From: Parcubacteria group bacterium RIFCSPLOWO2_01_FULL_48_18
GTDB taxonomy: Bacteria; Patescibacteriota; Minisyncoccia; UBA6257; WO2-01-48-18
DNA length: 64,000 bases
Direction of reading: 5' to 3'
Assembly: GCA_001824435.1 (NCBI GenBank)
Contig: MHXH01000016.1
Span: 14,970-78,969, forward strand
Position numbers and translations under genes: made by a program. Positions 419 to 34,761 of this stretch are shown one piece after another (the first letter of the stretch is position 1; each line of letters begins with the position of its first letter). The notes under the pieces are model-generated. The model worked only from the letters and a program-made list of their open reading frames with translations, had not been told where the DNA came from and searched no databases.

Positions 419-427
419 GCTTAGCGG

Positions 428-640
428 TTACTGACCCCCTTCCCAGTCCTTGCCGATGGTTATGTCCGTAGCCGGCTTTAGACCGCCATAAACTAAAAGT
501 AGATCAATTCTGTCACCCAGAGAGTACAGTTTTCGGAAAGGTAAAGATTCTAGAGATTGTATTACCCATGCTTCTTTTTCTCTCTTGCTCTTCAAAAGTT
601 GTAAGCGTTTCCTCGGCATCAAATTGTGGCAGCCCTTCAA
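428..640 (-). CDS. Small hypothetical protein (70 aa), in frame with the partial ORF downstream of it
   Basis: ORF track. It has no recognisable motif, and a single stop codon separates it from the continuing frame. Confidence 0.3.
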   Translation of the reverse strand: MKGCHNLMPRKRLQLLKSKREKEAWVIQSLESLPFRKLYSLGDRIDLLLVYGGLKPATDITIGKDWEGGQ

Positions 641-796
641 ATCTCATAAGTTATTTCCTAACTGGTGCAGTATTCTTGAATTAGTCCGAACGCATTTCGC
701 CGCCTGCGGCGGCGAGGAATTCCCCCCGCGAAAATTCGGAAAGGCGGCGGAGTCGCACCGCTGACAATTTCAAATTTTTTTTGGCGGCATAAATTC

Positions 797-1531
797 TTAA
801 AAAAATGAAAATCCTTTCAGGAATTTATCAAAGAATATTGATTCTTCACTATTGTCTTTTATTGGTTCGAAGAAATTGAAATGAACAACATAGAAAAAAT
901 CTTTCGTATCTATCCAAAATTGGTGAGGACAAGTATTGGGATCAACTTTCATTCCATACCATTGGGACGCAGAACATTCCACCGCTCCTTTCCATGTCCC
1001 AGTGTTCATTTGAATTTCTTTCCCAGTAAGACAGTAAACATATTCTTCGTATTGGGATTCACTGGACAAATTTCTACTTCCTGCGGCAACCGGACATTGC
1101 GAATTGGAAGCGAACATTTTTTCATAAGAAGAATCTATCGAAGAAGATATTGGTTTCTTAATAATAGTAATACCACCCACGATAGCTATGACCTCTCCAT
1201 TTTTAATTTCTTGCAATTGAACGAAAGGAAAATGAGTATCCTCGTCTACCTTCCAATAAGCCGGATATTGAAACTCAAGCCCATATTTTTCACTACGATA
1301 CACCTTCCAGTCATCGGTCGATGGCGAGGAGCTCGTCGTTTTATTGGAAGGTTGCGTAGCAGTTTGAGTGGATGTCGGAGTTTTTACTTCATTGGATACA
1401 GGCGCTGGTTGTTGAGTTTGAATTTCCGTAGGAGCCACGGATTTCTTGGAAAAAATGAAATACCCACCGATTGCAACAATAGCAATGACAACGAAAATCA
1501 AAACAATATTTACAAATCCCTTTTGACTCAT
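797..1531 (-). CDS. Hypothetical membrane-anchored exported protein. The likely start is at MSQKGF (1531); the ORF track extends it to 1603.
   Basis: An N-terminal hydrophobic helix (IVLIFVVIAIVAIGGYFIF) is followed by a Thr/Ser/Pro-rich linker and a Cys-containing globular part. Confidence 0.5.
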   Translation of the reverse strand: MSQKGFVNIVLIFVVIAIVAIGGYFIFSKKSVAPTEIQTQQPAPVSNEVKTPTSTQTATQPSNKTTSSSPSTDDWKVYRSEKYGLEFQYPAYWKVDEDTHFPFVQLQEIKNGEVIAIVGGITIIKKPISSSIDSSYEKMFASNSQCPVAAGSRNLSSESQYEEYVYCLTGKEIQMNTGTWKGAVECSASQWYGMKVDPNTCPHQFWIDTKDFFYVVHFNFFEPIKDNSEESIFFDKFLKGFSFF

Positions 1532-1654: not shown

Positions 1655-1966
1655 TGGTGCCGCGGGAGGGAATCGAACCCCCTACGCCAGCCTCTTCCTG
1701 GCTGATTTTGGACTATATCATCTCCGTTCTTCGCGCAAGAGTGCGGAGTCGGGCGCTTGTGCAAGATTATTGTTGGGACTCACTTGCTAGTCTCTACACC
1801 TTCTAAGAAATCTCCACCGGCTGGCGGAGCCCCCCTTAGCTTGGCTCGGGGTTGTTCTGACGGCATGTCGGAGTGTTCCCCGAATTCACCCGATTTTACA
1901 GTCTGCATTACTGCAGAAAGCCCCAAAGAATTTCAGGGCTGCGCTCTACCAATGAGCTACCGCGGC
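1655..1966 (-). tRNA. tRNA-Phe (anticodon GAA) interrupted by a ~237-nt intron in the anticodon loop. The intron is probably group I.
   Basis: The 5' exon (1966..1930, minus strand) reads GCCGCGGUAGCUCAUUGGUAGAGCGCAGCCCUGAAAU: acceptor stem, U8, D-arm GCUC/GAGC and anticodon stem CAGCC. The 3' exon (1692..1655) reads GGCUGGCGUAGGGGGUUCGAUUCCCUCCCGCGGCACCA: anticodon stem partner GGCUG, T-arm GGGGG-UUCGAUU-CCCUC, acceptor CCGCGGC complementary to GCCGCGG, discriminator A and encoded CCA. The intervening ~237 nt contain a GACUA...GAGUC P7-like pair. Confidence 0.8.
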
Positions 1967-2064
1967 AATCATGTTTAGACTATACCAATTTTTTGATTCC
2001 TTCAATATGCCCCATAATTTTTATGTTTAAGGGTGGGGGGCGGCGCGAAACGAGGTAGGAAACC

Positions 2065-9644: not shown

Positions 9645-9980
9645 ATGGACGCCCCCCCAAACGAAAAACCCAAAGACGAACCTGCGCCGTTCATTATAGG
9701 CGTTGGTTTTGCCGCTCCGGCGGCTCCGGCAACAGGAGAAGACTCTTCTGAAAAAAAACCAGAGGGGATCCCCACGGCCGAACCACAGGATAAATCCTTC
9801 GACGCGGCTACTTCGACTACGCTCAGTACGGGCCAGGATAAACCCCACATGCTTTTTACAACCGGAGCTGAAAAAATTAAGCCGATCTCCGAAAGCAGGC
9901 GGCCGTCAATGGGCCCGGTAGTTCTGGAAAAACAGAAGAAGGAAACGCCGAAAGCGAGAATAGAACTTCCGGAAGAGTAG
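9645..9980 (+). CDS. Hypothetical Pro/Ala-rich small protein with an uncertain start
   Basis: Low-complexity ORF. The track starts it at 9615, and MDAPP at 9645 is a plausible alternative. Confidence 0.3.
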   Translation: MDAPPNEKPKDEPAPFIIGVGFAAPAAPATGEDSSEKKPEGIPTAEPQDKSFDAATSTTLSTGQDKPHMLFTTGAEKIKPISESRRPSMGPVVLEKQKKETPKARIELPEE

Positions 9981-10030
9981 ACCCTAGACCTTAGGCTTTA
10001 GGCTCTAGGCTTTAGGTTTTAGGTTTTAGA
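9978..10030. repeat. Tandem heptamer array (TTAGGCT/TTAGGTT ...), left flank of four-helix-bundle cassette 1
   Basis: Direct reading: tagaccctagaccttaggctttaggctctaggctttaggttttaggttttag. Confidence 0.7.
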
Positions 10031-10086
10031 CGTTGCGTTAGACGCGGAAAAATTAGGATGTAATTTCTAAACCTCTAAAAGCCGAC

Positions 10087-10442
10087 ATGCACACTTATAA
10101 AGACCTTATCGTCTGGCAGAAGTCTATAGAACTGGTTACAAAAATATACCTCTTGACAGAAGGCTTTCCAAAAGAAGAAATCTATGGCCTAACGTCGCAA
10201 ATGAGACGCGCTGCCGTATCCATAGCTTCGAATATTGCTGAAGGCAGGCTACGAGGACATCCAAAAGAATTTAAGCAGTTTTTATTAACTGCTTATGTGG
10301 CTCTGGCGGCGAACTAGAAACACAGATTGAAATCGCCAAACGCCTACCCACCACAAGACGCCTCGATTACACAAGAACAGACGCCCTGCTTAGCGAGGTG
10401 ATGAAAATGTTAAATGCGATGATCTCAAGGACTAGCGCCTAA
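10087..10442 (+). pseudogene. Four-helix-bundle protein (23S rRNA intervening-sequence protein / Avd-like family), frameshifted
   Basis: The N-terminal 76 aa (YKDLIVWQKSIELV...GLTSQMRRAAVSIASNIAEG) match the family. The conserved C-terminal part (GSGGELETQIEIAKRL...MLNAMISRT) continues in another frame after a 2-nt indel near 10297-10300. Confidence 0.65.
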
Positions 10443-10474
10443 CGCCTAGCGCCTAACGGCCTAGCGCCTAAACC
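10429..10474. repeat. Tandem heptamer array (CGCCTAA/CGCCTAG), right flank of cassette 1, inverted relative to the left flank
   Basis: Direct reading. Its reverse complement (TTAGGCG...) mirrors the TTAGGCT array at 9978..10030. Confidence 0.65.
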
Positions 10475-11122
10475 ATGCAGTTTCAAATCCCCCAATTCAT
10501 CGAGACGGAAGATAAAATTGTCGGGCCGTTTACGCTCAAGCAGTTTTTATATTTTGCCGGCGCCGGAGGCATCAGTTTCGTCCTTTACTTCACGCTCAAT
10601 TTTTTCTTCTGGTTTATGATCACATTTTTCCTCGCGCTCGTCGCCGTCGGATTGGCATTTGTCAAGATCAACGGCCTGCCGCTCATCAAAATCCTCATGG
10701 CGGCAGTTGGTTTCATGATGAAGCCGCGGCTCTACGTCTGGCAGAGGCGGCTGGAAGGAAAAACCGTCGAGGTTCCCGAAGACGAGGACGAAGAAACGCC
10801 GGAAAAAGAAAAACCAGCCGAAGACGGGCATCGCCCGGCAATAAGCGGCAGCTTGAGTTCATTGGCCGAAAAGTTGAAAACCGGAAGCTCGTACATTCCA
10901 AAAAGAGAACAACCCATGCCGAGCCGGTTTTCGACGTATACCGCGGCCCCGCCAGCCGCCACCGCTCCGGCCCCAAAAACTGACAACCCACACCAACAGG
11001 CTCCGCAGCCAATCGAAAACCCGACAACACAACCTACGCCGCAACAAAACAACCAGTATGTTGAACTAGAACTGCCCAGCGGAGAAATACAAAAAGCGAA
11101 ACGAGTGGACTATGGTGAATAG
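10475..11122 (+). CDS. PrgI/VirB3-like small membrane protein with a Pro/Gln-rich C-terminal tail
   Basis: The N-terminus (QIPQFIETEDKIVGPFTLKQFLYFAG) plus two TM helices resembles the PrgI (VirB3-like) family. It lies immediately upstream of the VirB4-type ATPase. Confidence 0.5.
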   Translation: MQFQIPQFIETEDKIVGPFTLKQFLYFAGAGGISFVLYFTLNFFFWFMITFFLALVAVGLAFVKINGLPLIKILMAAVGFMMKPRLYVWQRRLEGKTVEVPEDEDEETPEKEKPAEDGHRPAISGSLSSLAEKLKTGSSYIPKREQPMPSRFSTYTAAPPAATAPAPKTDNPHQQAPQPIENPTTQPTPQQNNQYVELELPSGEIQKAKRVDYGE

Positions 11123-11150
11123 ACTAAAGTTGAAAGTTGTAAGTTGAAAG
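11123..11150. repeat. AAGTTGAAAG-type tandem repeat, left terminal repeat of four-helix-bundle cassette 2
   Basis: aaagttgaaagttgtaagttgaaagg. It is the reverse complement of the array at 11591..11623. Confidence 0.65.
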
Positions 11151-11222
11151 GGGTGGATTACAACGAGTAGATTCAAGTTATACGAAGGAGCTAGTTAACC
11201 ATTGATATGATAAAATAAGTAT

Positions 11223-11606
11223 ATGCCGGTAGAAGACCTTGAGGTGTACAAGAAACTTTGCGAACTCGCGCTAGAAATCCATGGAGCTACATTGTCCTTC
11301 CCGCGATTTGAATTGTACGAACTGGGTTCTCAACTAAGACGCTCCTCGAACTCCGCGCCCGCAAACCTCGCTGAAGGCTTCGGTAATAAACACACTAACA
11401 TCTACTTGGAAAGTATCAGCCGGGCGCAAGGAGAAATAAGAGAAACGATACGTCATCTGCGAATGGCCCATCAGAAACAATATATTGTTAAAGAAAAATT
11501 CGAATATTTTATACATGCGTGCCGCGAAAGCTCAAAGATGCTCTACGGACTTGAACGGGGATTAGTACACTCGAAGGCTTTTAAAAATACTACCTTACAA
11601 CTTTAA
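11223..11606 (+). CDS. Four-helix-bundle protein (23S rRNA intervening-sequence protein / Avd-like family), intact and divergent
   Basis: DLEVYKK...FP..ELYELGSQLRRSSNSAPANLAEGFG...GEIRET..HL matches the family pattern. Confidence 0.6.
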   Translation: MPVEDLEVYKKLCELALEIHGATLSFPRFELYELGSQLRRSSNSAPANLAEGFGNKHTNIYLESISRAQGEIRETIRHLRMAHQKQYIVKEKFEYFIHACRESSKMLYGLERGLVHSKAFKNTTLQL

Positions 11607-11623
11607 TCTTTCAACTTTAATCT
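11591..11623. repeat. CAACTTTAATC tandem repeat, right terminal inverted repeat of cassette 2
   Basis: ccttacaactttaatctttcaactttaatct. Its reverse complement shares AAAGTTGAAAG and AAGTTGTAAG with the left repeat. Confidence 0.65.
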
Positions 11624-12280
11624 ATGGTCAACGCGAAACCGGCTACTCAACAAATAGTCGAAATAAAAGAAATTAAGGACGATATCGTATATCTCAAGGG
11701 CGGCGGACTGCGCGCCGTGATTATGGTTTCCGGCGTCAATTTCGACCTGAAATCCGAAGAAGAACAGAATATCCTTCTCTACGGCTATCAAAGTTTCCTT
11801 AATTCGCTTGATTACTCGTTCCAAATCGTTGTTCACTCACGGAAGTTAAACATCGACGGCTACTTGGAAATGCTCCGGCAACGCGAGTTGCAGGAGCAAA
11901 ACGAACTCCTCAAGGCGCAAGTCGCCGAATACGTGGAATTCGTAAGCTCGTTCGTACAGATGAACGCCATCATGTCAAAAACATTTTACGCAGTCGTCCC
12001 GTACGACGTCATCCAGGTAGGGTCAAAAACCATTGCCGGCCTCGGAAGCCTTATGGAAGGAGGATCAAGGGCGCCGGTTGCAACAACAAAGGAAGAAGAC
12101 GAAACCGTAAAAATAACCCAGCTCGAACAGCGAGTCGAACAAGTTCTGGGAGGCATCCGCAGAATGGGACTCCGGGCGGTTCGCCTCAATGCGCAGGAGC
12201 TCATTGAGCTCTACTACAATTTGTATAACCCGGAGGAAAAAGAACGGACGCTCGCAATTGCAAAAGATATGACTACATAG
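11624..12280 (+). CDS. VirB4/TraE-type conjugal-transfer ATPase, N-terminal domain fragment (218 aa)
   Basis: LKGGGLRAVIMVSGVNFDLKSEEEQ is typical of the N-terminus of Gram-positive-type VirB4 proteins. It ends at a TAG immediately before a 93-bp inverted-repeat element. It is in the same frame as 12374..14188. Confidence 0.6.
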   Translation: MVNAKPATQQIVEIKEIKDDIVYLKGGGLRAVIMVSGVNFDLKSEEEQNILLYGYQSFLNSLDYSFQIVVHSRKLNIDGYLEMLRQRELQEQNELLKAQVAEYVEFVSSFVQMNAIMSKTFYAVVPYDVIQVGSKTIAGLGSLMEGGSRAPVATTKEEDETVKITQLEQRVEQVLGGIRRMGLRAVRLNAQELIELYYNLYNPEEKERTLAIAKDMTT

Positions 12281-12373
12281 TCGTATACAGCTTGTAGCTG
12301 GTAGCCGGTAGCTTCTTAATCGTGGTTTAACTTATTACCAAAAAGCTACAAGCTAAAAAGCTACAAGCTAATC
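12281..12373. mobile_element. 93-bp (31-codon, in-frame) inverted-repeat element splitting the VirB4 gene
   Basis: The left end has cagcttgtagctggtagccggtagc and the right end has aaagctacaagctaaaaagctacaagct, forming AGCTTGTAGCT / AGCTACAAGCT inverted repeats. It carries three in-frame stop codons. Confidence 0.55.
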
Positions 12374-14188
12374 ATGGGTTTCATCAATCCGTTTGGCGCG
12401 TCGTCGCCAAAACAAAAAATCGCTGTTCCTACCGCATACGAGATGGGCGGTAAGGACATCAAGGACATAATTTCTCCGCCGGCGCTTGAAATCGAGTCGA
12501 ACTTCCTCAAGCTCGGCAAGAAATTCGTCAAGAGCTACTTCGTATTCACCTATCCCCGCTTTCTTGTCAGCGGCTGGTTTTCTCCGATCATCAACATGGA
12601 CAAGGCGATGGATATCGCCATTTTCGTCCATCCAATCGAAACCGCAACAGCGCTGAAAAAGCTCCGCAGAAAAACCGCTCAAGTCCAAGCGCAGCTCGCC
12701 GAGCGGGAAGAAAAAGGATACGTATCCGACCCGGCGCTCGAAACCGCCTACCAGGACATCGAATCGCTCCGCCAATCGCTCCAGCAATCAACGGAACGCC
12801 TCTTCAATGCAGGGCTGTACTTCACCCTCTACGGAGACACGCTTGAAGAAATAAACGCCGTGGAGTCAAAGATCGTTTCAATCCTCGAGGGCCAGATCGT
12901 GTACACCAAGCCGTGTCTCTTCCAACAGTATGAAGGATTCGTATCAACGCTACCGCTCGGACACGACAAAATACTCATACACACCCCGCTTAATTCCGGA
13001 CCCATTTCTTCGTTCTTCCCGTTCGTTTCTTCTGACCTTACGTCAGACAAGGGTATTCTCTACGGCATCAACCGCCACAACAACAGCCTCGTCATATTTG
13101 ACAGGTTTTCAATGGAAAACGCGAACCAGGTCCTGTTCGCCAAGTCCGGTTCCGGGAAATCCTATACCACTAAGCTCGAAATCCTGCGCTATCTTATGCT
13201 CGGCACCGACATCCTCATCATCGATCCGGAAAACGAGTATCAGAATCTTTCGGACACCGTAGGCGGCGCGTTCTTCAAAATATCCCTGACATCCGATTAC
13301 CACATCAACCCATTCGACATCCCGAAAATTCCGAAAGGAGAAGACCCGGGAGACGTCTTGCGTTCGCATATCGTCAATCTCTCCGGCCTCCTCAAACTAA
13401 TGCTCGGTGGCGTAACGCCCGAGGAAGACGCCGTGTTAGATCGGGCTATCACCGAAACCTACGCCTCACGCGACATCACGCCTGACGCCGACTTTTCGGG
13501 GAAAACGCCGCCGCTCATGCAAGATCTCCAAACCGTGCTTGAAAACATGGAAGGCGCAAAAGACGTTGCCGCAAAATTGGAAAAATATACCAAAGGAACG
13601 TACAGCACGTTCATCAACCAACCGACGAACATCGACGTCAAAAACCGGCTTATCGTATTCAGCTTGCGCGACCTGGAGGACCAGTTGCGGCCGATGGCGA
13701 TGTACATCGTGCTCAATTTCATCTGGGGACTTATCCGCGCAGAGCTTAAACGCCGCCTCCTCATTATCGACGAGGCGTGGTGGATGATGAAAAGCGAAGA
13801 CAGCGCGTCATTTCTCTTCGGCCTGGCCAAGCGCGCGCGGAAATATTACATGGGGGTAAGCACCATCACGCAAGACGTGGAGGACTTTCTAAAGTCACCG
13901 TACGGAAAACCGATCATCACCAACTCGGCAATTCAGATCCTCCTCAAACAGGCGCCTTCTTCTATCGACGCGGTGGCCAAAACATTTAACCTCACCGAAG
14001 CAGAAAAACAACTATTGCTTGAAAGCGGAGTGGGGGAAGGATTGTTTTTTGCCGGACTCAAGCACGCAGCCATCAAGGTCATCGCTTCCTACACCGAAGA
14101 TCAAATCGTCACCACCAACCCGCAACAAATCATGGAGCAACAAAAGCTGTCGGAGCAAATAGAAAAAATGAAGGAAAAAACAAACTAA
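12374..14188 (+). CDS. VirB4/TraE-type conjugal-transfer ATPase, C-terminal ATPase portion (604 aa)
   Basis: Walker A FAKSGSGKSYT and Walker B LLIIDEAWWMM. The YPRFLVSGWFSPII segment is typical of VirB4 just after the N-terminal domain. Confidence 0.75.
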   Translation: MGFINPFGASSPKQKIAVPTAYEMGGKDIKDIISPPALEIESNFLKLGKKFVKSYFVFTYPRFLVSGWFSPIINMDKAMDIAIFVHPIETATALKKLRRKTAQVQAQLAEREEKGYVSDPALETAYQDIESLRQSLQQSTERLFNAGLYFTLYGDTLEEINAVESKIVSILEGQIVYTKPCLFQQYEGFVSTLPLGHDKILIHTPLNSGPISSFFPFVSSDLTSDKGILYGINRHNNSLVIFDRFSMENANQVLFAKSGSGKSYTTKLEILRYLMLGTDILIIDPENEYQNLSDTVGGAFFKISLTSDYHINPFDIPKIPKGEDPGDVLRSHIVNLSGLLKLMLGGVTPEEDAVLDRAITETYASRDITPDADFSGKTPPLMQDLQTVLENMEGAKDVAAKLEKYTKGTYSTFINQPTNIDVKNRLIVFSLRDLEDQLRPMAMYIVLNFIWGLIRAELKRRLLIIDEAWWMMKSEDSASFLFGLAKRARKYYMGVSTITQDVEDFLKSPYGKPIITNSAIQILLKQAPSSIDAVAKTFNLTEAEKQLLLESGVGEGLFFAGLKHAAIKVIASYTEDQIVTTNPQQIMEQQKLSEQIEKMKEKTN

Positions 14189-15944: not shown

Positions 15945-17042
15945 ATGAAAAAAGTTATTGTTATATTCATCTTAGTACTCATGCTCGCTGCCGCTGTCGG
16001 CGCCATGATTATATTGAGTAAGCGATCGGCGCAGGTCATTACGCAAGAGCGCGCCGTGGAAGAACAGAAAAAAACCGAAGAGCAGAAAAAGCAGGATCCA
16101 CTCAAACGACTTTCCGGCCAGCCGGCACTCGGTTTTTGGTTCTCGCAGGACACGCTATATTACCTCAACGGCGCCGGACAGATTTATTCCGTTAACATCC
16201 AGAACGGCGAGGAAAAGCAAGTCTCTTCCTACGCGATAGAAAACGTGCGAGCCATCACGCCCTCTGCGAAAGGGGATGGAGCGCTCATAACCTTTTCCGA
16301 CCGCGGAGAAAATCTGGTAAGCATGTATCGCGTCGCGGAAAATTCCTGGACGCCGCTCGACAAGAATATACGGTCTGCCGCATGGTCTCCTGACGGCCAA
16401 TGGCTGGCGCAATTACGGGAAACGTTCGGCGGTGTGCTCGTCCTTGAGCTTGTCAAGCTCTCCGGCGGAGAAAGAACCGAGCTCGCCCGCCTATCCATGC
16501 GCGACGCGCGCCTTACCTGGATCGGCGGACAACAACTCATTGTCTCGTCTCCTCCTTCGAAAGATTTTCCGGCCCCTGCGCTCACAATCAACGTCCTAAC
16601 AAAGACCGTCTCGCCGCTCGCGCTTGAAAAACCGGGGCTTTCATTCGCATGGTCAGCGTCAGGTAAACAAGCTCTCGCGTTCTGGGTCGATGACAACGGC
16701 AAAAATCAAACTGCGCTTGTCAATGATTCGGGAGTCGTCCTCAAAAATTTCCAGACGCCACTCCTACCGCACAAATGCGCGTTCAGCGGAGAACAACAGC
16801 TGTACTGCGGCGTGCCGGCAAATGTAAACCTTGCCACCGTGGCCGATTTACCCGATGCATACCTTATGCAAAAGGTTCGTCTTGTGGATCACGTAGCACT
16901 CGTCGACGCACAAACGTCACGTCTCAAGATTATCTTCTCTCGTCAAGAACCCTCGCTCGATATTTACAAACCTCACGTACACGACAACAAACTTTTCTTC
17001 ATCAACCGCTACGATGGCGCCATCTACTCGTTGGAGTTGTAA
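15945..17042 (+). CDS. Membrane-anchored beta-propeller-like (TolB-like) protein, last gene of the locus
   Basis: An N-terminal TM helix and a Lys/Glu linker are followed by repeated strand-rich segments containing WSPDG / AWS motifs. Confidence 0.4.
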   Translation: MKKVIVIFILVLMLAAAVGAMIILSKRSAQVITQERAVEEQKKTEEQKKQDPLKRLSGQPALGFWFSQDTLYYLNGAGQIYSVNIQNGEEKQVSSYAIENVRAITPSAKGDGALITFSDRGENLVSMYRVAENSWTPLDKNIRSAAWSPDGQWLAQLRETFGGVLVLELVKLSGGERTELARLSMRDARLTWIGGQQLIVSSPPSKDFPAPALTINVLTKTVSPLALEKPGLSFAWSASGKQALAFWVDDNGKNQTALVNDSGVVLKNFQTPLLPHKCAFSGEQQLYCGVPANVNLATVADLPDAYLMQKVRLVDHVALVDAQTSRLKIIFSRQEPSLDIYKPHVHDNKLFFINRYDGAIYSLEL

Positions 17043-17126
17043 GTTGCAAGTCGACAGCGGAAAGTTAAAAACCGGACGCAGGAACCGGTTTTTTAATCTT
17101 TCAGCTCACAACTTTAATCTTTAATC
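17033..17126. mobile_element. Cargo-less copy of the AAGTTG inverted-repeat element with an embedded bidirectional terminator hairpin
   Basis: The left end (agttgtaagttgcaag...ggaaagtt) and right end (cacaactttaatctttaatc) match the terminal repeats of cassette 2. The centre is AAAAACCGG-N9-CCGGTTTTTT (17066..17096). Confidence 0.55.
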
Positions 17127-17132
17127 CGATCG

Positions 17133-17576
17133 CTAGTCGAACGGCCTCACCACCACGTGTCGATCTATTCCCTCTCCCTCGCTTGCGGTAACAACGTCCG
17201 GCCGCGTCGCCAACTCAACGTGCACCAAGCGCCTCTCATACGCATTCATGGGCGGCAACGCAACTTCTTTTTTTGTCAGCCCAACCTTGCGGGCGGCGAC
17301 TTTCGCAAGCTCCAAAATAAGTTTCTCGCGGTCGCTGCGATAATTGTTGATATCGACAAAAACGGGCACGACGCCCTGCTTGCGGGCTATCTGCTTAATC
17401 ACAAATTCAAGCGCGTCTTTGAGTTCATCCTTGAGAAAAATGGGCTTGCCGACGGCATCATTAATGTATACGGCAAGCCTCTTCTTCTCGCTGTAGTATT
17501 CAACGACCGGCTCCAAGTATCCCATCAGGCGTATGAGCGTGACCGTTGTTTGTTTTAACGATTCGTTGGGTTCCAT
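17133..17576 (-). CDS. jag: Jag/KhpB-like RNA-binding protein (KH + R3H domains)
   Basis: It lies downstream of yidC. The R3H region reads NAYERRLVHVELA. Confidence 0.65.
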   Translation of the reverse strand: MEPNESLKQTTVTLIRLMGYLEPVVEYYSEKKRLAVYINDAVGKPIFLKDELKDALEFVIKQIARKQGVVPVFVDINNYRSDREKLILELAKVAARKVGLTKKEVALPPMNAYERRLVHVELATRPDVVTASEGEGIDRHVVVRPFD

Positions 17577-18292
17577 GTTTTTAGGCTTCTATTAATAACG
17601 ATTTGTTGAATTATACTAAAAATGGTCGTTGTCAGCCAGTACAGGCCGATCGCGGACGGGAGTCCCCATAAGATAAAAATGGTAACTGCCGGCATAGTAT
17701 ACACCATCTGCTTTCCCATATTTGCCATAGGGTTTTTACTTCCCTCGGTCGCCTGCTGTGGCGGCGAAGCCGCCTTAGCCAAGCTCAATTTCCCCTGAAC
17801 AAACTGAGCGGCGGCCGCCACAACGGCAATCGGTATACTCCGCCGCGCAAGATCAACGACGCTTAAAAAGTAATGGTTGATCGGTGCAGATATCCCCGGC
17901 ATAAAACTATATAAATCGCCGTAAGCGGTTTCCGAAAGGCCAACATTAAATACTTTCCACAGCGCGATAAAGACAGGGATTTGGACCGCGAGCAGCATCA
18001 GTCCGCTGAGCGGATTCACCTTATGCTCTCGATAGAGCGCCATCATCAGCTCTGCCTGCCGCGCCTTGTCGCGCTTATGGTCCTCTTGTATCTTTTTCAG
18101 CTGCGGTTGAATCCGCGACATAACCGCCTGCGCATGGGCGCCTTTGTGGAACAAGGGCCACAGCACCACGCGAATAATGATGGTTAAGAGGATGACTGCA
18201 AGTCCCATGTCTTGAAACGTCACTTTGTCATACAAAAAAATGAGCGCGTTCAAGAGCGGTCGGTATAAAATGGCATGGAATAATTCTCCCAT
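17555..18292 (-). CDS. yidC: Membrane protein insertase YidC (short form)
   Basis: Polytopic protein with the conserved YidC/Oxa1 core. It sits in the rnpA-yidC-jag arrangement. The start is at MGELFH, 6 nt from the rnpA stop. Confidence 0.7.
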   Translation of the reverse strand: MGELFHAILYRPLLNALIFLYDKVTFQDMGLAVILLTIIIRVVLWPLFHKGAHAQAVMSRIQPQLKKIQEDHKRDKARQAELMMALYREHKVNPLSGLMLLAVQIPVFIALWKVFNVGLSETAYGDLYSFMPGISAPINHYFLSVVDLARRSIPIAVVAAAAQFVQGKLSLAKAASPPQQATEGSKNPMANMGKQMVYTMPAVTIFILWGLPSAIGLYWLTTTIFSIIQQIVINRSLKTWNPTNR

Positions 18293-18297
18293 CGAAA

Positions 18298-18636
18298 CTA
18301 TCTCGTGGCGCGCCCGAGAAGCGCTCGAAGCTCTTCCCGCATAGAGCCCTCGACCCGCCGTTCCGACATCGCGCCCGATTTTACAAAAACACAAATATCG
18401 TGTCCGCCTCCCGTAACCTCTTCCTTCCGTATCGTTTCTGTCAATACCCTACGTAAACGATTCCTCGCTGCCGCGCGCATACGTCCTCCCACCATGACCG
18501 CATATCTGTTATACGGAAGGCCGCTTGCTTTCGCGCCGACGCCGAGAAAGCGCCCGCGAACAAAACGATCAAACTTCTGCCGCGACCCGGGCAGGCGATT
18601 TCTAAAAAGCGGCAGTCGTAATTTTCTCTTCAACAT
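18298..18636 (-). CDS. rnpA: Ribonuclease P protein component
   Basis: A basic ~112-aa protein between rpmH and yidC. Confidence 0.65.
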   Translation of the reverse strand: MLKRKLRLPLFRNRLPGSRQKFDRFVRGRFLGVGAKASGLPYNRYAVMVGGRMRAAARNRLRRVLTETIRKEEVTGGGHDICVFVKSGAMSERRVEGSMREELRALLGRATR

Positions 18637-18684
18637 AGGTATGGCGAGGGCCTATCCCCCCGACACGGCGAACCGAGATATGCG

Positions 18685-18825
18685 TTACGGACGTGCGTAC
18701 GGCGCAAGCACGCCTCTTTTCTTGCGGCGTCTGCGCACTAAAACCCGACGACCGCCGGGCGTCTGGCTTCTCTTCAAGAAACCATGCGTCCGTCGCCGTT
18801 TCTTCTTTTTCGGCCGGTACGTCAT
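18685..18825 (-). CDS. rpmH: 50S ribosomal protein L34
   Basis: The translation [46 protein letters not shown] matches the L34 signature. It is absent from the ORF track (<60 aa) and was found by hand translation. Confidence 0.8.
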
Positions 18826-19044
18826 TGACATTACTATTGAGATTAGCAAGAATGAAGTAAAAATTCAACGCGTTGCGCGACACAGAACACGGTGCCGCAT
18901 CGCATCCAAAAACCGTCTTATGTTGTCCACACCTTGTACACATTCTCTGCTTAAAATAACTTTGCAACCCTCGACAATATATTTTATGATTCGCACATGC
19001 GCGCCGCATTAATGCCGTCGCTGATGCTTTAAATTTGTTCCCAT
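18826..19044. promoter_or_regulatory. rpmH-dnaA intergenic region, candidate oriC/dnaA promoter with DnaA-box-like 9-mers
   Basis: TTGTCCACA at 18923..18931 is one mismatch from TTATCCACA. TTGTACACA and AT-rich stretches are also present. It sits in the classical rpmH/dnaA divergent position. Confidence 0.45.
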
Positions 19045-20403
19045 ATGAACATAAACCTTGAAGATTTTTGGAAAAACGTACTCGGCGAAGTAGAACTCGA
19101 GATATCAAGGCCTAATTTCGTCACATGGCTGAAGGGCAGCCGCCTTGTAGACAAAAAGGACGGCGTCGCGCTGGTAAGCCTTCCCAGCAACTTTGCCCGC
19201 GAATGGGTGGAAAACAAATACAATAAATTGATACTCCGTTCGCTGCGCGCGCTCGACCAATCCTTAAAGCGCGTGGAATACACCATCGACGCTTCTCAGC
19301 ACAACAAGATCCTTCCGCAGAAGACGCCGGTACTCATTACCAACCAACTTGCGTTTCAAGAATTCAGAGTCGATCCAGAAACAAATCTTAACCCCCGGTA
19401 TACGCTCTCATCGTTCATCGTTGGTTCATCAAACGAACTCGCGTACGCGGCAACGACCGCAGTGATTAACGAAATCGGAACAAAGTACAATCCGCTTTTC
19501 ATTTACGGAGGCGTGGGTCTTGGAAAGACTCATCTGCTGCAAGCGATGGGCAATGAAATAAAAAACCTGCACAAAAATAAAATTCGCGCGCGGTATGTAA
19601 CGTCGGACCGGTACGTCAACGACGTAGTGTGGGCTATCCGCAACAAACGGATGGACGACATCAGAGAGAAATACAGGAACGTTGACATCCTCATCATTGA
19701 CGACATCCAGTTTGTCGGCGGCAAAGAGAGAACGGAAGAGGAATTCTTCCATACATTCAATGCGCTGTATGAAATGAATAAACAAATTGTTATATCGTCG
19801 GATCGCGCCCCGCGGGCAATTCCCACCCTTGAAGAACGCCTGCGTTCGAGATTCGAAGGCGGAATGATCGCCGATATCGGGTTCCCAGACTACGAAATGC
19901 GCGTTGCCATTCTGAAAACGAAACTGCAAGAAAAAAATCAGGAATTACCGGACGACATCATCGATCTTGTCGCCTCCCGCATCCAGCGCAACATTCGAGA
20001 ACTTGAGGGAGTCCTCAATCGGATCTTGTTCCATCAACAGAAAAAAAACGAACCGGCAAGCATTAAAACCGCAGAAGGAATCATTCAAGAAAATGCGACG
20101 CAACCGGTTAAACAAATCAGTTTTCAGCAGATCACGCAAGCCGTATCTTCGTTCTTCGAAATCCCCGAAAAAGACCTCCTGGGGCGTTCGCGGAAGAAAG
20201 AAATCGTGTTTCCGCGCCAAATTGCCATGTACATCATCCGAGAAGAGCTCAGTGCGTCTTATCCCGAAATCGGGAGCAGGCTCGGGAAAAGGGATCACAC
20301 GACGGCGATTTATGCCTATGAAAAAATATCTAAAGAGATTCAGAAAAACCCCGCGCTCGCGAGTAAAATCAACTTATTGAAAGAGAAAATACATAACAGT
20401 TAG
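19045..20403 (+). CDS. dnaA: Chromosomal replication initiator protein DnaA
   Basis: AAA+ Walker A GGVGLGKTHLL and a C-terminal DnaA-box-binding domain. Confidence 0.9.
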   Translation: MNINLEDFWKNVLGEVELEISRPNFVTWLKGSRLVDKKDGVALVSLPSNFAREWVENKYNKLILRSLRALDQSLKRVEYTIDASQHNKILPQKTPVLITNQLAFQEFRVDPETNLNPRYTLSSFIVGSSNELAYAATTAVINEIGTKYNPLFIYGGVGLGKTHLLQAMGNEIKNLHKNKIRARYVTSDRYVNDVVWAIRNKRMDDIREKYRNVDILIIDDIQFVGGKERTEEEFFHTFNALYEMNKQIVISSDRAPRAIPTLEERLRSRFEGGMIADIGFPDYEMRVAILKTKLQEKNQELPDDIIDLVASRIQRNIRELEGVLNRILFHQQKKNEPASIKTAEGIIQENATQPVKQISFQQITQAVSSFFEIPEKDLLGRSRKKEIVFPRQIAMYIIREELSASYPEIGSRLGKRDHTTAIYAYEKISKEIQKNPALASKINLLKEKIHNS

Positions 20404-20594
20404 TAACCCTGTGAAATGGCATTGGATAATTACTGAACAAGCGCGATGTTCCGAAGGACGTCCTGTCGCTTTCCGCTTTATACAGTTTTTCCCCCCAACT
20501 TATACTCCTTCTTTCTCCTTACGAATAGAGACAAAAGAGGATAAAGAATAAGAAACAAAGCGTTGTCCACTTATCCCCTCCCCCTACTATAACT
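20404..20594. promoter_or_regulatory. dnaA-dnaN intergenic region with DnaA-box-like motifs and an AT-rich element (second oriC candidate)
   Basis: TTGTCCACT and TTATCCCC near 20560..20578, ATTGGATAA at 20421, and the AT-rich aaaagaggataaagaataagaaacaaag. Confidence 0.4.
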
Positions 20595-21719
20595 ATGAAA
20601 TTATTAATATTAAGAGAGAATTTAAAACAGGTAGTAGGTATTGTTGATCGCGCCGTGAGCAATTCGTCTTCTCTGCCGGTACTAAGAAATATTTTGGTAA
20701 TCGCAGCAAATGGTACCATTTCTGTTTCTGCAACAAATTTGGAATTGGCCGTTACCGCGACGCTTACCGGCAAGATTACCGAAGAAGGTTCACTCACTAT
20801 TCCTGCACACGTCTTTTCTGCAATCGTAGGAAGCGTTTCTTCGGAAAAGATACATCTCGAAAAGAAAGGGAATTCGGTACTGGTAAAGACAGACAACTAT
20901 GAAGCCGCGATTCAAACGATCCACGAAAAAGAATTTCCCATTATACCGAAGGCAAAAAATACGCGCGAGTTTATAGATATCGACGGCAATCTTTTAAGGT
21001 CTGCTTTCGACCAGGTAATTAATGCGGCTGCAACGGTCTCGGATTTTCGTCAAGAACTTTCCGGAGTATTATTTTCTTTTCAAGGGGATTCGATTATCTG
21101 CGCCGCAACCGATAGCTTCCGGCTCGCTGAAAAAACGATATCACACGCTCAGTACCAAACTAATATCGAAAAAGGTTTTACGGTTATTATACCGGCGAAG
21201 AATGTTCAGGAGCTTATTAAAATACTACCGTCGGGAACGGTTCGCATCCACGTCGACCAGAATGAAATCATTTTTAAAAACGAGGAACGTGAGATCGTTT
21301 CGCGCCTTATTGAGGGAAAGTTTCCTGATTACCGGAATATCATTCCGACGTCATTTGATTTCAACGCGCACGTGCCTATCAATGAGCTTCTGGAAGGCCT
21401 CAAGCTCGTTCATGTGTTTGCAAGTCGGCTCAATGATATTAAAATAGCGATTGCCGATAGTCATAAAACCGCTGAATTATCTTCGCGCGAAACCGGCTTA
21501 GGAGAAAACCGTTACCTCGTTCCGATAAAAGGAGAGGGGACGGCGTTTGAAGTCATGTTTAACGGCATCTACTTCTCGGACGGATTGAGGTCTGTCGCAA
21601 AAGCGGCAAAAAACGAGAGGGCATTTCTCGGGCTCAACAAAAGTTCTCGCCCTTCCCTCATACGAGCGGTTGAAGACAAATCGCTTCTCTATGTTCTTAT
21701 GCCTATCAGGCAGCCGTAA
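20595..21719 (+). CDS. dnaN: DNA polymerase III beta sliding clamp
   Basis: Follows dnaA; 374 aa with a three-domain clamp pattern. Confidence 0.85.
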   Translation: MKLLILRENLKQVVGIVDRAVSNSSSLPVLRNILVIAANGTISVSATNLELAVTATLTGKITEEGSLTIPAHVFSAIVGSVSSEKIHLEKKGNSVLVKTDNYEAAIQTIHEKEFPIIPKAKNTREFIDIDGNLLRSAFDQVINAAATVSDFRQELSGVLFSFQGDSIICAATDSFRLAEKTISHAQYQTNIEKGFTVIIPAKNVQELIKILPSGTVRIHVDQNEIIFKNEEREIVSRLIEGKFPDYRNIIPTSFDFNAHVPINELLEGLKLVHVFASRLNDIKIAIADSHKTAELSSRETGLGENRYLVPIKGEGTAFEVMFNGIYFSDGLRSVAKAAKNERAFLGLNKSSRPSLIRAVEDKSLLYVLMPIRQP

Positions 21720-21998: not shown

Positions 21999-22020
21999 AA
22001 ATCCGACGGACTCGGATGGG

Positions 22021-23505
22021 CTATTTTCTTAGAAGTAGAGGGAAAAGTTTTCCCGGCTTTTGGATCATAAACTTGCCTCCTTGCCATGGAGAGCTGCTAT
22101 TTTTGTAACCCAACCATTGCGAAATCACTGACGCCGTGTGCGGCATAAAGGGTTGTAGCATTTCATTCAGGTTGGCAAGGGCGAGCCATATACTTGAGGC
22201 CGTGTCTTCGAATTCTTTTTCCCCGGGTGTTTGCTGCCACGGCTTTTGCGCATTGATATAGCGGTCGGCCCGACCCATCAGATTCCATACGGCCTCAAGT
22301 GCCGTATTAAATTTAAACTCGGTTAAAGCAGCGCTGTAATCTTTCCAGCTGAGCAAGACATCTTTTTTTAAGTCGTCTTTCCCGACTGTTACCTGCCCTG
22401 CCTTGATCATCAGGGTTAGAGAGCGGCTGACCAGGTTGCCCAATCCGTGAGCCAGGTCATCGGCATATCTTCTTGCAAGTCTTTCCATGGAGAAGTCGCC
22501 GTCTTCACAGGGAGGAATTTCTCTAAGAAGAAAGTAGCGGGTAGGATCAATGCCCCATTCTTTTGTTACATCTTTGGGATCGATGACGTTGCCCAAGCTC
22601 TTTGACATTTTTTCTCCTTCAGCCGTTACATAACCATGGACAAAAACTGTGTTCGGTAGGCGCAGTCCTGCCGAGAGAAGCATTGCTGGCCAGTAAATTG
22701 CGTGAAAGCGTAAAACCCCCTTGCCGATCATATGAATTATTTTTGTATCCTCGTCGCGCCAAAACTTTTCGAAGGTACGGCCTCCTTGCGCAAAATCGAT
22801 ACCTGTAACATAGTTTGTGAGCGCGTCGAACCAGACGTACATGATTTGATGGTTGTCGTCGGGTACCGGTATTCCCCATCCGTCGGCGCGCGTTATGCTT
22901 CGTGAAATACTGAAGTCTTCGAGGCCCGACTCGATAAATCTTTCGACTTCATGTTTCCGGCGTTCCGGCACGATTCTAATGCGGTCTTCAGCGTAGATTG
23001 CCCCGAGCTGTTTCTGGTATGCCGAGAGCCGAAAAAAATAGTTCTCTTCCTCGACGGTCTCTGGCTTGGTATGATGCTCCGGACAAAGGCCCTCAGCGAG
23101 CTCTGATTCTTTGTAGAAAAGTTCGCAGCCCACGCAATAGAGGCCGCGGTACACTTTCCTGAATATGTCTTTTGCGCACATCCGCCAGAACTTTTTTGCT
23201 CCTTCGACGTGACGAACCTCGGTGGTGCGTATGAAGTCGTCGTAGGAAATATCCAGAACTGTTTTGAGCTTCTTGAATTTTTCGGCGTTCGCGTCCACAA
23301 GCTCTTTGACGGGGACCCTCGCGAGTTTCGCCGCCTGCACGTTTTTGAGGCTGTTCTCGTCGGTGCCGGTTAAAAAATAAACCTCGTCTTCCATAAGGCG
23401 GCGGTAGCGGGCGACGACATCGGCTTGTACGGCTTCAAGCCCGAATCCGATATGCGGATCCGCATTTACATACGGAATCGCGGTTGTGATGAGTAGTTTT
23501 GACAT
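22021..23505 (-). CDS. metG: Methionine--tRNA ligase
   Basis: A class I HIGH-type motif (PYVNADPHIGFG) and KMSKS. Confidence 0.9.
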   Translation of the reverse strand: MSKLLITTAIPYVNADPHIGFGLEAVQADVVARYRRLMEDEVYFLTGTDENSLKNVQAAKLARVPVKELVDANAEKFKKLKTVLDISYDDFIRTTEVRHVEGAKKFWRMCAKDIFRKVYRGLYCVGCELFYKESELAEGLCPEHHTKPETVEEENYFFRLSAYQKQLGAIYAEDRIRIVPERRKHEVERFIESGLEDFSISRSITRADGWGIPVPDDNHQIMYVWFDALTNYVTGIDFAQGGRTFEKFWRDEDTKIIHMIGKGVLRFHAIYWPAMLLSAGLRLPNTVFVHGYVTAEGEKMSKSLGNVIDPKDVTKEWGIDPTRYFLLREIPPCEDGDFSMERLARRYADDLAHGLGNLVSRSLTLMIKAGQVTVGKDDLKKDVLLSWKDYSAALTEFKFNTALEAVWNLMGRADRYINAQKPWQQTPGEKEFEDTASSIWLALANLNEMLQPFMPHTASVISQWLGYKNSSSPWQGGKFMIQKPGKLFPLLLRK

Positions 23506-23566
23506 GAATGGCGGCGATTACGGCAGATTCATGTAGGGCGCCTTGCCGTTTTACCCCGAACGGGGT

Positions 23567-24586
23567 TTACGCCCCCAATCGTGCTCCTTTTCTCTTCCCC
23601 CAGTCTTCAACAATCTCTTGCAGTACCACCACTGACGGGATAGCGAGGATCATGCCAACAACTCCGCCTACCGCCGAACCCGTCATCAGCGCGAGGATGA
23701 CCACCACAGGATTGATTCCCACGAGCTTTTTTGTGATGAGCGGAACCGCAAGATGGTTTTCGAGCTGCTGGATAACAATAAAAACTAGTAGCGTGAAGAA
23801 GGCCAGTTTTGTGGACTCTGCGAGTGCCGCCAGGATTGCGACGGCCGCCGCAAATATGGGACCGGCGATCGGCACGATCTCAAACGCGCCCGCCACGAAC
23901 CCGAGCAGGAACGCATAGTTGACGCCCAAGAGCCTGAGCGCCCCAAAGCTTAACAAACCGATGAGAATGCTGAGCGAAAGCTGGGTTTGAAGCCAGCGCC
24001 CTAGTTTCTTTTTGACGCGCAACCAGAGGTTAATGAGGTAGTCTTCGTACGCGGCTGGAGTAACGGCGCGAATGAATTCCGTAACCCCGTTCTCGTTTAC
24101 CAATATATAAAACGTTACGATCGTAGTCGCAAGAAGAACGGCTACTCCGCCGATTAGCGAGCCGAGGAGATTAAATACCGAACCGCCGCTTTCAAGGAGC
24201 ATGGTGAGCGAATCGAGCGAAACGGAGAGCGAAGAGCGCAGCTCTTCAAATATTTCGGGGCTGAAGTAGAGGCTTAGCTGAGGCGTGAGGTTTTCAAGGT
24301 GGTCGAGAAAGTTTCTCAGTTCGACGACAACCGGAGGAATGATGAGGTACAATGCCGTGGCCACGGTGGCGACGGCGAGAAGATAAAGAAAAATAGCGGA
24401 AAGTACCCGCGGCACCCCTCCCTTTTGAAGCGTGTTGACAACCGGTTCGACCGCCGATGAAATAATGAGCGAAAAAAACAGGACGACAAGCGCCTTTACG
24501 GCAAAATACGCCAATAGAATGATAAGCACGACCGTGATTGCCCTCCAAAATGTCAACCACGATACGTCGTGAATGCTACGTTCCAA
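23567..24586 (-). CDS. AI-2E family transporter (PerM-like)
   Basis: 8-TM topology with a conserved AFEIVPIAGP segment. Confidence 0.65.
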   Translation of the reverse strand: MERSIHDVSWLTFWRAITVVLIILLAYFAVKALVVLFFSLIISSAVEPVVNTLQKGGVPRVLSAIFLYLLAVATVATALYLIIPPVVVELRNFLDHLENLTPQLSLYFSPEIFEELRSSLSVSLDSLTMLLESGGSVFNLLGSLIGGVAVLLATTIVTFYILVNENGVTEFIRAVTPAAYEDYLINLWLRVKKKLGRWLQTQLSLSILIGLLSFGALRLLGVNYAFLLGFVAGAFEIVPIAGPIFAAAVAILAALAESTKLAFFTLLVFIVIQQLENHLAVPLITKKLVGINPVVVILALMTGSAVGGVVGMILAIPSVVVLQEIVEDWGKRKGARLGA

Positions 24587-24667
24587 TGAAATAGAGTGTT
24601 TAGCGCTTAGCGTTCAGCGTTTATCCGCCAGCCGGCGGACTAATCGCCATACTCCATACCCTAAACC
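24587..24667. repeat. Intergenic repeat element: heptamer arrays (TAGCGCT..., CCCTAAA x2) flanking the 16-bp palindrome TCCGCCAGCCGGCGGA (24624..24639)
   Basis: Direct reading. Confidence 0.6.
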
Positions 24668-29272: not shown

Positions 29273-29379
29273 GTTCTTGGAATTTGGAATCTTGAATTTG
29301 GAGCTCGGAAGCCCTAACCCTTGAACCCCGAATTCAGATTCTAATTCTAAATTCTAAATTCTAAATTCCAGATTCTTTT
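29273..29379. repeat. Heptamer tandem arrays (GAATTTG..., ATTCTAA x4)
   Basis: ggaatttggaatcttgaatttggag ... attctaattctaaattctaaattctaaattcc. Confidence 0.6.
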
Positions 29380-29847: not shown

Positions 29848-29944
29848 CCTAGCTTTTTAGCTTCTTAGCCTTTTAGGGAAGCTTGTCGATATGGCGTTCT
29901 CAACAGCTCTAATAAGCTACAAGCTAGTAAGCCACCAGCCTTAC
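29848..29944. repeat. Tandem array (AGCTTTTTAG/CTTCTTAG/CCTTTTAGG) plus AGCTACAAGCTA motif shared with the VirB4-splitting element
   Basis: Direct reading. Confidence 0.55.
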
Positions 29945-34679: not shown

Positions 34680-34681
34680 TA

Positions 34682-34760
34682 CGATTTGAGTTGAGAGTCA
34701 TGAGTTGAAGGCCGTCAGGCTCAAGATGGCCAGCAGATTGCAACTCCCATAACTTACAAT
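34682..34760. repeat. Diverged copy of the AAGTTG-type inverted-repeat element between the response regulator and histidine kinase genes
   Basis: The left end is gagttgagagtcatgagttgaagg and the right end is ttgcaactcccataacttacaa. Confidence 0.4.
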
Positions 34761-34761
34761 T

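Follow-up and report, generated by a model that had tools for sequence, protein, structure and literature searches.

The segment analyzed here, 95 bp at positions 17034..17128, lies in a 64,000-nucleotide stretch of contig MHXH01000016.1 from Parcubacteria group bacterium RIFCSPLOWO2_01_FULL_48_18; the whole of this stretch is referred to as the window. The segment is found where two rows of genes converge. The row on its left resembles a type IV secretion system (T4SS) locus, with PrgI, a split TraC/VirB4, a pilin-like gene and a gene for a 365-aa protein, and the row on its right is the jag-yidC-rnpA block beside dnaA-dnaN, where yidC, the neighbor of jag, was identified as 60KD_IMP by Pfam. 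The open reading frame (ORF) of the 365-aa protein and jag are separated by 90 nt, and the segment occupies the entire interval between their stop codons at 17040-42 (+) and 17133-35 (−), its right arm ending 4 nt short of the jag stop codon. It consists of five left heptamers, a hairpin and five right heptamers, all in phase (Table 1), and only 25 nt lie between the two arrays.

The segment was assigned as a gene-less member of a family of cassettes that encode a four-helix-bundle protein (FHB; PF05635) and that have the layout of 23S rRNA intervening sequences (IVSs), here placed between protein-coding genes. A probability of about 0.7 is given to this explanation as a whole.

Table 1. Positions in the window of the parts of the segment, its flanking genes and related elements; L-numbers denote database loci
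Feature	Position	Strand	Description
Last gene of T4SS-like locus	15945..17042	+	365 aa; stop codon within first heptamer; synteny with L002, L003
Left arm of segment	17034..17068	+	GAGTTGT AAGTTGC AAGTCGA CAGCGGA AAGTTAA; AAGTTGN type, by direct reading
Central hairpin of segment	17067..17093	both	AAAAACCGG 17067-75, 9-nt loop, CCGGTTTTT 17085-93; candidate bidirectional terminator
Right arm of segment	17094..17128	+	TAATCTT TCAGCTC ACAACTT TAATCTT TAATCCG; NCAACTT/NAATCTT type
jag-like R3H-domain gene	17133..17576	−	Pfam R3H E = 1.5e-15; first gene of jag-yidC-rnpA block adjoining dnaA
Cassette 1	9978..10476	+	TTAGGCT / GCGCCTA heptamers; architecture as cassette 2; FHB gene frameshifted
Cassette 2, full AAGTTG type	11119..11625	+	left arm 11119-11151; PF05635/TIGR02436 gene 11223..11606; right arm 11593-11625
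Gene-less hairpin	12281..12373	+	GTAGCTN / AAGCTAN; between TraC-N and TraC-C; fold −33.6 kcal/mol, z = −7.0
Gene-less hairpin spacer	24587..24667	−	TTAGCGN / CCCTAAA types; central GC hairpin; fold z = −3.3
Gene-less hairpin spacer	29273..29379	−	GGAATTT / AAATTCT; fold z = −4.7
Gene-less hairpin spacer	29848..29944	−	TAGCTTN / AAGCTAN; adjoins RecO-like gene; fold z = −3.5
Weak degenerate hairpin spacer	34680..34761	−	histidine-kinase / response-regulator junction; fold z = −1.5

The major data for this assignment were alignments of both arms to those of cassette 2, a full cassette 5.5 kb upstream. Cassette 2 is wedged from the stop codon of PrgI (TAG 11120-22) to the start codon of TraC-N (ATG 11624), and its arms form a 33-nt inverted repeat that is 85% complementary and closes the predicted fold of the whole 516-nt RNA. 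Unlike 17034..17128, which has no PF05635 ORF, it holds an intact gene, with a full-length match to PF05635 (4.5e-27), an NCBIfam assignment to TIGR02436 and a match to PDB entry 2GSC (E = 9e-8). The left arm of the segment was found to match that of cassette 2 at 21/26 positions without gaps, a score reached by 0/1000 shuffles, and the right arm at 22/22 positions with a single 7-nt indel, a score reached by 1/1000 shuffles. An exact 15-mer, ACAACTTTAATCTTT, is common to the segment and cassette 2 (E = 0.006). When the 64 kb were scanned for three consecutive AAGWTKN units with ≤2 mismatches, only cassette 2 and 17034..17128 were flagged, each as a left-type array followed by a right-type array. 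Judged by these alignments, the similarity between the segment and cassette 2 is real and ordered, and it extends beyond scattered AAGTTG words. The original prediction for this stretch had stated that the ends of the segment match the terminal repeats of cassette 2, and the pairwise alignment bears this out; the concern that the likeness might come down to low-complexity AAGTTG runs of no particular order is answered by the fact that both arms align in order and orientation. The further statement that the interior holds only a terminator-like hairpin between convergent genes agrees with direct reading and with the ORF list.

The right arm was also found to match the arms of cassettes in other genomes. 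In L010 the match was 19/19 directly after the FHB stop codon, in L007 it was 23/24 and in L013 27/30, and a match of 31/35 was also obtained (E = 8e-7 in a 308-kb database). Taken together, the alignments show the arms of the segment to be homologous to those of cassette 2 and of FHB cassettes in other phyla. A different interpretation is that the segment is an ordinary native terminator and that its resemblance to cassette 2 arose by chance between AT-rich, low-complexity spacers. Heptamer arrays do inflate short-match statistics, the first left unit is coding sequence, and at the orthologous junction of L003, a relative with a 79% identical VirB4, the spacer is 81 nt long, lacks heptamer arms and contains a strong bidirectional terminator hairpin that differs from the one in the segment. 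This interpretation was nevertheless deemed scarcely credible because both arms match in order and orientation, as the shuffles attest, because there are five in-phase units per side, because the right arm recurs beside FHB genes in unrelated genomes, and because the unit scanner returned no other such pair in 64 kb.

Heptamer-armed cassettes in other genomes

The family was surveyed in 80 loci from species-representative genomes encoding relatives of the cassette 2 protein. Runs of period 7 were found to adjoin the FHB gene in 60 of these loci, and on both sides of it in 34; the corresponding numbers for other periods were 12 (period 5), 4 (period 6), 3 (period 8) and 0 (period 9). For nearly all of the 35 closest loci, the inverted-repeat scores around the gene were 30-80, compared to ≤27 in shuffles.

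The closest proteins (about 60-77% identity) were from Saccharibacteria, anammox Planctomycetota, Peribacteria, Doudnabacteria, Taylorbacteria, a deltaproteobacterium, Ignavibacteria and Bacteroidetes, and they are accompanied by the same AAGTTGN/AAGATTN left and NCAACTT/NAATCTT right units as in the window. With more distant proteins the arms are of other types, namely CAGGTGT/GACACCT in Desulfobacterales, CCGGGTT/GGAACCC in some GC-rich genomes, and TAGGTGN and CCGATTN. AAGTTG-type arms were observed in a deltaproteobacterium and in anammox bacteria, and CCGGGTT arms in another planctomycete. Across these loci, the heptamer type is seen to track the protein lineage rather than the host phylum; the gene and its arms are thus inherited and transferred as a unit. 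Horizontal transfer is likewise indicated by the occurrence of the closest proteins in very different phyla, and, since related gene and arms are found together in distant phyla, the horizontal spread of the full cassette across phyla is well supported by the comparison.

The placement of the cassettes is also consistent between loci. They look promoterless and lie inside gene rows, co-oriented with the upstream gene in 63/66 loci and with the downstream gene in 52/67. The left array begins no more than about 10 nt from the upstream stop codon, which is often supplied by the TAG of a terminal TAGATTA unit. On the other side, a median of about 3 nt separates the end of the right array from the downstream ATG. 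The idea that the arrays supply stops in three frames, given that 7 is not a multiple of 3 and that TAG, TAA and TGA occur in them, was rejected as the count (11/34 left arms, compared to 7.3 expected) was not significant, being reached in 156/2000 shuffles.

Both the arms and the gene vary within the family. The Peribacteria cassette of L010 (1311..1478) has a left arm of about 24 AAGATTA/AAGTTGA units (168 nt) and a right arm of about 3; arms can thus expand greatly and asymmetrically. FHB genes are truncated in L013, L016, L036 and L039. In the window, the FHB gene of cassette 1 is a pseudogene in which frame 1 stops after 76 aa and the C-terminal half (..GSGGELETQIEIAKRL..) is in another frame; the Pfam match extends over profile positions 1-66 of 106 only. 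The presence of PF05635 genes inside cas operons has been remarked on before (PMC3936711). The literature searched, which covered few subscription journals, contained no earlier account of FHB cassettes with heptamer arms outside rRNA, or of gene-less derivatives.

Gene-less forms and orthologous junctions

Several other gene-less hairpins with heptamer arms were found in the window (Table 1), and two of them, 12281..12373 and 29848..29944, form a related pair (similarity z = 6.4). At 51763..51860, after an aspartokinase/homoserine-dehydrogenase gene, a short run of GGAATTT/GAAATTT heptamers is followed by a strong GC hairpin (GTGGCGCT..AGCGCCAC), so that here too heptamers and a terminator-like hairpin occur together. 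A further degenerate copy of the segment had been proposed at 34682..34760, and this proposal fared poorly: the spacer gave z of about 3.1 to 3.5 against cassette 2, which is marginal at most, and the similarity of 34680..34761 to 17030..17130 was not significant (z = 1.0). No near-identical copies of the segment occur within the 64-kb window, where only the arms are similar. The original prediction made no mention of heptamer arrays as the ends, of the layout of a 23S rRNA IVS, or of the heptamer-hairpin spacers of other sequence types, at least six of which were added here.

In other genomes, gene-less AAGTTG/AAGATT-type hairpins were observed beside full cassettes in L031 (Taylorbacteria; two copies), L027 (Saccharibacteria) and L021 (another Patescibacteria genome), and in L004 the arm sequence of a gene-less hairpin recurs in the FHB cassette found 1.9 kb from it in the same genome. 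At L031 1363..1904, a gene-less left-plus-right hairpin is directly followed by an FHB ORF and a second right arm. The flanking ORFs of this locus look like ATP synthase atpG and atpD by residue motifs, and another gene-less hairpin is present at the preceding junction (342..430). Full and empty forms with the same ends had been taken as the signature of a mobile miniature element. The co-occurrence of the two forms was seen in the window and in all four of these loci. The segment 17034..17128, for which no mobility was demonstrated, may equally be what is left of a full cassette after loss of its gene in place.

When metagenomes were scanned for a pair of left units and a pair of right units 35-65 nt apart, 67 stretches were obtained, 54 of them distinct; of the distinct ones, 45 have three or more in-phase units on each arm, which exceeds the demands of the pattern, and about six hits look like chance matches within ORFs. 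The FHB gene is also present at 4 of the 67 loci. The gene-less forms have a consistent compact design of arms plus a 15-50 nt loop, with a median fold z of −3.25, and the loops of the 45 gene-less relatives are all different. No target-site duplication was evident by inspection for the segment and these 45 relatives, the outer boundaries of the arrays being fuzzy.

Orthologous junctions were compared as well. In L002, a distant syntenic relative, all four junctions that carry an element in the window are without a spacer, with 0 nt between the orthologous gene and jag and 7 nt between PrgI and TraC. L003 has a gene-less AGGGTTT-type hairpin at the junction of cassette 1, where L004 has an intact FHB cassette, and its TraC-N/TraC-C junction is unoccupied. 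Elements at these junctions are thus acquired, lost and swapped far more rapidly than the genes of the host diverge. At the site of the segment, a further four assemblies of this organism (L086-L089) were identical, and no strain polymorphism was observed there. For the 365-aa gene just two relatives were found as orthologues in the database. Proteins of relatives end in ..YSLKLK* and ..YSFTL*, and by this comparison the C terminus of the 365-aa protein looks native.

The split of TraC/VirB4 was also examined. The two ORFs, 11624..12280 (218 aa) and 12374..14188 (604 aa), align to residues 1-217 and 237-803 of the 804-aa protein of L002. Most TraC/VirB4 relatives in the database are about 580 aa, so that the split is widespread in the clade. 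In L003 and L005 just 8-9 nt lie between the halves, from which the split is deduced to be older than the heptamer hairpin that intervenes in the window.

The central hairpin and the origin of the segment

The hairpin at the apex of the segment has a 9-bp stem with A5 before it and T6 after it (A5-CCGG-N9-CCGG-T6), and RNAfold gave −9.5 kcal/mol for the plus strand and −10.5 kcal/mol for the minus strand. The features expected of a terminator, a G+C-containing stem-loop and then a U-run, are present on both strands just downstream of the convergent stops, and the apex, as modeled, is probably a bidirectional intrinsic terminator for the converging operons. The whole element has a predicted fold of −27.3 kcal/mol (+) or −28.4 kcal/mol (−), in which an outer stem (GUUGGAGUUGU / ACAACUUUAAU) and a middle stem are arranged around the central hairpin. 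The arms alone gave −20.2 kcal/mol compared to −12.6 kcal/mol for shuffles (z = −2.7). Rfam returned no family at 16900..17300 and no rRNA in the window.

Several observations weigh against the assignment of the segment as a gene-less cassette with a terminator at its apex. The apex hairpin is weak, having 4 G-C pairs, and was not listed by a consensus terminator scan owing to its 9-nt loop. The arms are degenerate and their pairing is moderate, the whole element giving z = −2.5. The first left unit (GAGTTGT plus AA) corresponds to the last codons and the TAA stop of the upstream ORF. The 64-kb window has no RNase III gene, which is uninformative for the rest of the genome. Lastly, the order of the units is not mirrored between arms across the family (0.649, compared to a permuted null of 0.66), and selection on an exact helix is consequently not demonstrated. 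The unit repertoire is, however, more alike between the arms of one element than between those of swapped elements (0.649 vs 0.571, 2/1000). A shared repertoire without a mirrored order is more in keeping with concerted evolution, register-tolerant pairing or recognition of the units by a protein than with a fixed helix.

Protein recognition could be the primary role, with the heptamer arrays acting as protein-binding sites, as proposed for the TAACTGA repeats, and with hairpin formation being secondary. This would suit the period of 7, which is fixed across very different unit sequences, as well as the repertoire that is common to both arms in an order that is not mirrored. TAACTGA arrays likewise stop about 1 nt short of start codons and seem to have spread horizontally (PMC4679880), and PF05635 proteins are homologous to Avd, a nucleic-acid-binding protein of diversity-generating retroelements (DGRs) (PMC10053308). 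Such a role is considered quite unlikely here since no start codon follows the right arm of 17034..17128, and since the arrays are consistently inverted and fold better than shuffles.

The paired arms could instead be a working RNA stem, either an RNase III processing site or a protective hairpin for the 3′ end, with the central hairpin as just its tip. The nesting of the outer and middle stems in the predicted fold is consistent with this, and cleavage by RNase III of a heptamer-containing stem is documented for the Coxiella IVS (PMC4990558). The fold is nonetheless only about z = −2.5, compared to −7.0 for the neighboring hairpin at 12281..12373, and the two outermost right units are unpaired in the minimum-energy structure. 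With termination at the apex, moreover, the two arms would never be on one RNA, and a working stem was judged unlikely for this segment.

Within the assignment as a member of the cassette family, the absence of a gene has to be accounted for. One possibility is that a complete FHB cassette at the convergent junction lost its gene by deletion, so that the segment is an in-place relic and the miniature was never mobile alone. FHB genes decay frequently, as seen from the frameshift in cassette 1 and the truncations in four of the database loci. The right arm resembles those of L010, L007 and L013 at least as well as that of cassette 2, which fits a separate acquisition, and 45 loops that are all different are unlike a burst from one master element. 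The 25-nt core, on the other hand, has no recognizable remnant of an FHB gene or its leader. When the segment was aligned to L007 and cassette 2, the alignment was credible only in the arms and in a short stretch preceding the right one, and the interior matches were noise. Full cassettes are, furthermore, almost always co-oriented within operons rather than at convergent ends, and the gene-less forms share one compact design. Deletion in place is regarded as possible, although somewhat less likely than not.

The opposite possibility, that the segment is a classical miniature inverted-repeat transposable element (MITE) or a repetitive extragenic palindrome (REP) doublet (REPIN) moved by a transposase, was also considered. 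Correia elements, also called Neisseria miniature insertion sequences (NEMIS), and REPINs are small, intergenic and co-transcribed and have inverted ends, and the segment resembles them in these respects. Like a MITE, it has terminal inverted repeats that are common to itself, the full cassette 2 and FHB cassettes elsewhere. In addition, L004 has at 341..1015 a gene for a 224-aa Y1 transposase, similar to those of IS200 and to the REP-associated tyrosine transposase (RAYT), a few kilobases upstream of the same T4SS-like locus. A transposase-moved origin is nevertheless very unlikely. The window has no homologue of the Y1 transposase of L004, and none of the 30 window ORFs scanned against Pfam was a transposase. 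No target-site duplication is evident around the 45 gene-less copies, and the copies are not near-identical. The ends are heptamer arrays of variable number rather than a fixed terminal inverted repeat, they co-vary with the FHB protein lineage, and no conserved REP is present among the units. The protein encoded by the partner, cassette 2, has no known catalytic activity. The core sites of integron attC are GTTRRRY and RYYYAAC, and some units are like them. An attC assignment was rejected because the motif order is reversed, the ends have multiple units and no integrase was found among the 30 window ORFs scanned.

The preferred reading, a gene-less member of the FHB cassette family, would imply descent from a full AAGTTG/AAGATT-type cassette, either by miniature copying or by gene loss in place. 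The apex hairpin would now act as the bidirectional intrinsic terminator of the T4SS-like and jag-yidC-rnpA operons, as the hairpin of L003 presumably does. If this terminator is efficient, neither transcript would hold both arms, and the arms of 17034..17128 would be vestigial rather than a working RNA stem, which would fit the degeneracy of the segment (z = −2.5 vs −7.0 for the 12281 hairpin). In read-through RNA, the arms could pair (about −20 kcal/mol) to give a long imperfect duplex like the RNase III substrate in rRNA IVSs. For the family in general, a co-transcribed cassette is envisaged whose paired arms would let the insertion be excised or tolerated at the RNA level, and whose right arm would deliver the ribosome to the downstream start codon within a few nucleotides.

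Other features of the window were noted. A 31-nt, 90% complementary inverted repeat at 53308..53658 surrounds a 99-aa winged-helix (MarR/ArsR-like) ORF (53342..53641); the repeats are not heptamer arrays. On the minus strand, within 1657..1975, Rfam found a complete group I intron at 1687..1944 (51.8 bits). Its flanks read like tRNA halves, with a T-arm and ..GCGGCACCA 3′ end at about 1657-1690 and the 5′ half GCCGCGGTAGCTCATTGGTAGAGCGCAGCCCTGAAA at about 1940-1975, and ARAGORN made no call for an intron-interrupted tRNA gene. A 795-aa ORF at 45641..48028 has two successive matches to both D-Ala-D-Ala ligase domains, as would a tandem Ddl fusion, which it appears to be. The order of the genes in jag-yidC-rnpA / dnaA-dnaN (17133..21719) and a cumulative GC-skew minimum near 22000..24000 suggest that the window includes the chromosomal replication origin region.

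Comparison with known systems

The family was compared to several known systems. Correia/NEMIS elements of Neisseria are intergenic, co-transcribed inverted-repeat elements of about 100-150 bp whose hairpins are cleaved by RNase III and which in some cases serve as terminators. Their 26-bp terminal repeats are fixed, the target duplication is TA, and near-identical copies number in the hundreds. The elements described here differ in ending in heptamer arrays that vary, in showing no visible duplication and in having unrelated loops. In DGRs, Avd acts with a reverse transcriptase on RNA. The PF05635/cd16375 family is homologous to Avd, which is itself a four-helix-bundle protein (PMC10053308). 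The Pfam scan of 30 window ORFs revealed neither a reverse transcriptase nor a template/variable repeat pair, and the gene-less 17034..17128 encodes nothing.

A likeness in sequence and placement was found with the TAACTGA direct heptamer repeats of Beggiatoaceae, Cyanobacteria and Bacteroidetes. These repeats are almost all intergenic, within operons of unrelated function, and they overlap the upstream stop or, in most cases, terminate about 1 nt ahead of the start codon that follows (PMC4679880). Their patchy distribution was taken to suggest horizontal spread, with "no mechanism evident" (PMC4679880). The TAACTGA unit is near TAATCTT, ACAACTT and TAACTAA, and its placement (MacGregor 2015) is like that of the right arms described here. 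Cassette 2 (ATG 11624) and most of its relatives are likewise placed ahead of a start codon, whereas the segment is not, as it faces the 3′ end of jag. Unlike the paired and inverted arrays of the present elements, the TAACTGA repeats were described as direct, without an inverted partner or a link to PF05635.

These comparisons bear on genes annotated as "four helix bundle protein" or "23S rRNA-intervening sequence protein," which are among the commonest unexplained small genes in the candidate phyla radiation (CPR), Bacteroidetes and cyanobacteria. For >25 years it has been an open question how rRNA intervening sequences arose and how mobile they are (PMC4990558). The present data would turn a vague annotation into a defined element, comprising the gene, inverted period-7 arrays with units that track the lineage, and gene-less derivatives at operon junctions. 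They would also offer a concrete candidate origin for intergenic heptamer repeats that were described without a mechanism, and they suggest that such spacers should not be annotated as ordinary terminators or assembly noise. The picture that emerges is one of IVS-like elements outside rRNA together with miniature forms; 17034..17128 is itself a minor, partly decayed member. As a tentative and rather doubtful extension, we hypothesized that ORF-bearing 23S IVSs, the operon cassettes of CPR, anammox, Desulfobacterales and other bacteria, the gene-less derivatives and possibly the TAACTGA arrays constitute one horizontally mobile class, in which an Avd-like protein would recognize its own arms and drive spread, while, in the RNA, the arms would enable the host to tolerate the insertion or cut it out.

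The ORF-containing 23S IVSs of Coxiella burnetii and Leptospira provide a counterpart. The IVS of C. burnetii has an S23p (PF05635) ORF, a 28-bp terminal stem and two or three tandem GACAGAT heptamers, the number of which varies between strains (PMC4990558). RNase III cuts it at the first repeat, its ORF is decaying, and mobility has been suspected with the mechanism unexplained (PMC4990558). In common with these IVSs, the full cassettes have a PF05635 protein in the loop, inverted repeats that close a stem, tandem heptamers in variable number and decay of the ORF, and for both a horizontal spread has been considered. In 17034..17128 there are five heptamers per side, and the arms pair in the predicted fold, as they do more strongly in cassette 2. 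The segment differs in being located between a T4SS-locus ORF and jag rather than in helix 25 or 45 of rRNA, in having no ORF and in having a terminator-like hairpin as its apex. In its lack of an ORF it is matched by the ORF-less IVSs in helix 25 or 45 of Salmonella, Yersinia and Campylobacter. No description of heptamer arms in these was found in the literature searched. They sit in rRNA, where their removal by RNase III fragments the molecule, whereas 17034..17128 is a spacer between mRNAs. Insertions of both kinds, those encoding 23S_rRNA_IVP and short ORF-less ones, are found in the rRNA genes of CPR bacteria (PMC11270868). The ORF-less IVSs and the segment are alike in being hairpins of about 100 nt that hold no gene and coexist with ORF-bearing relatives.

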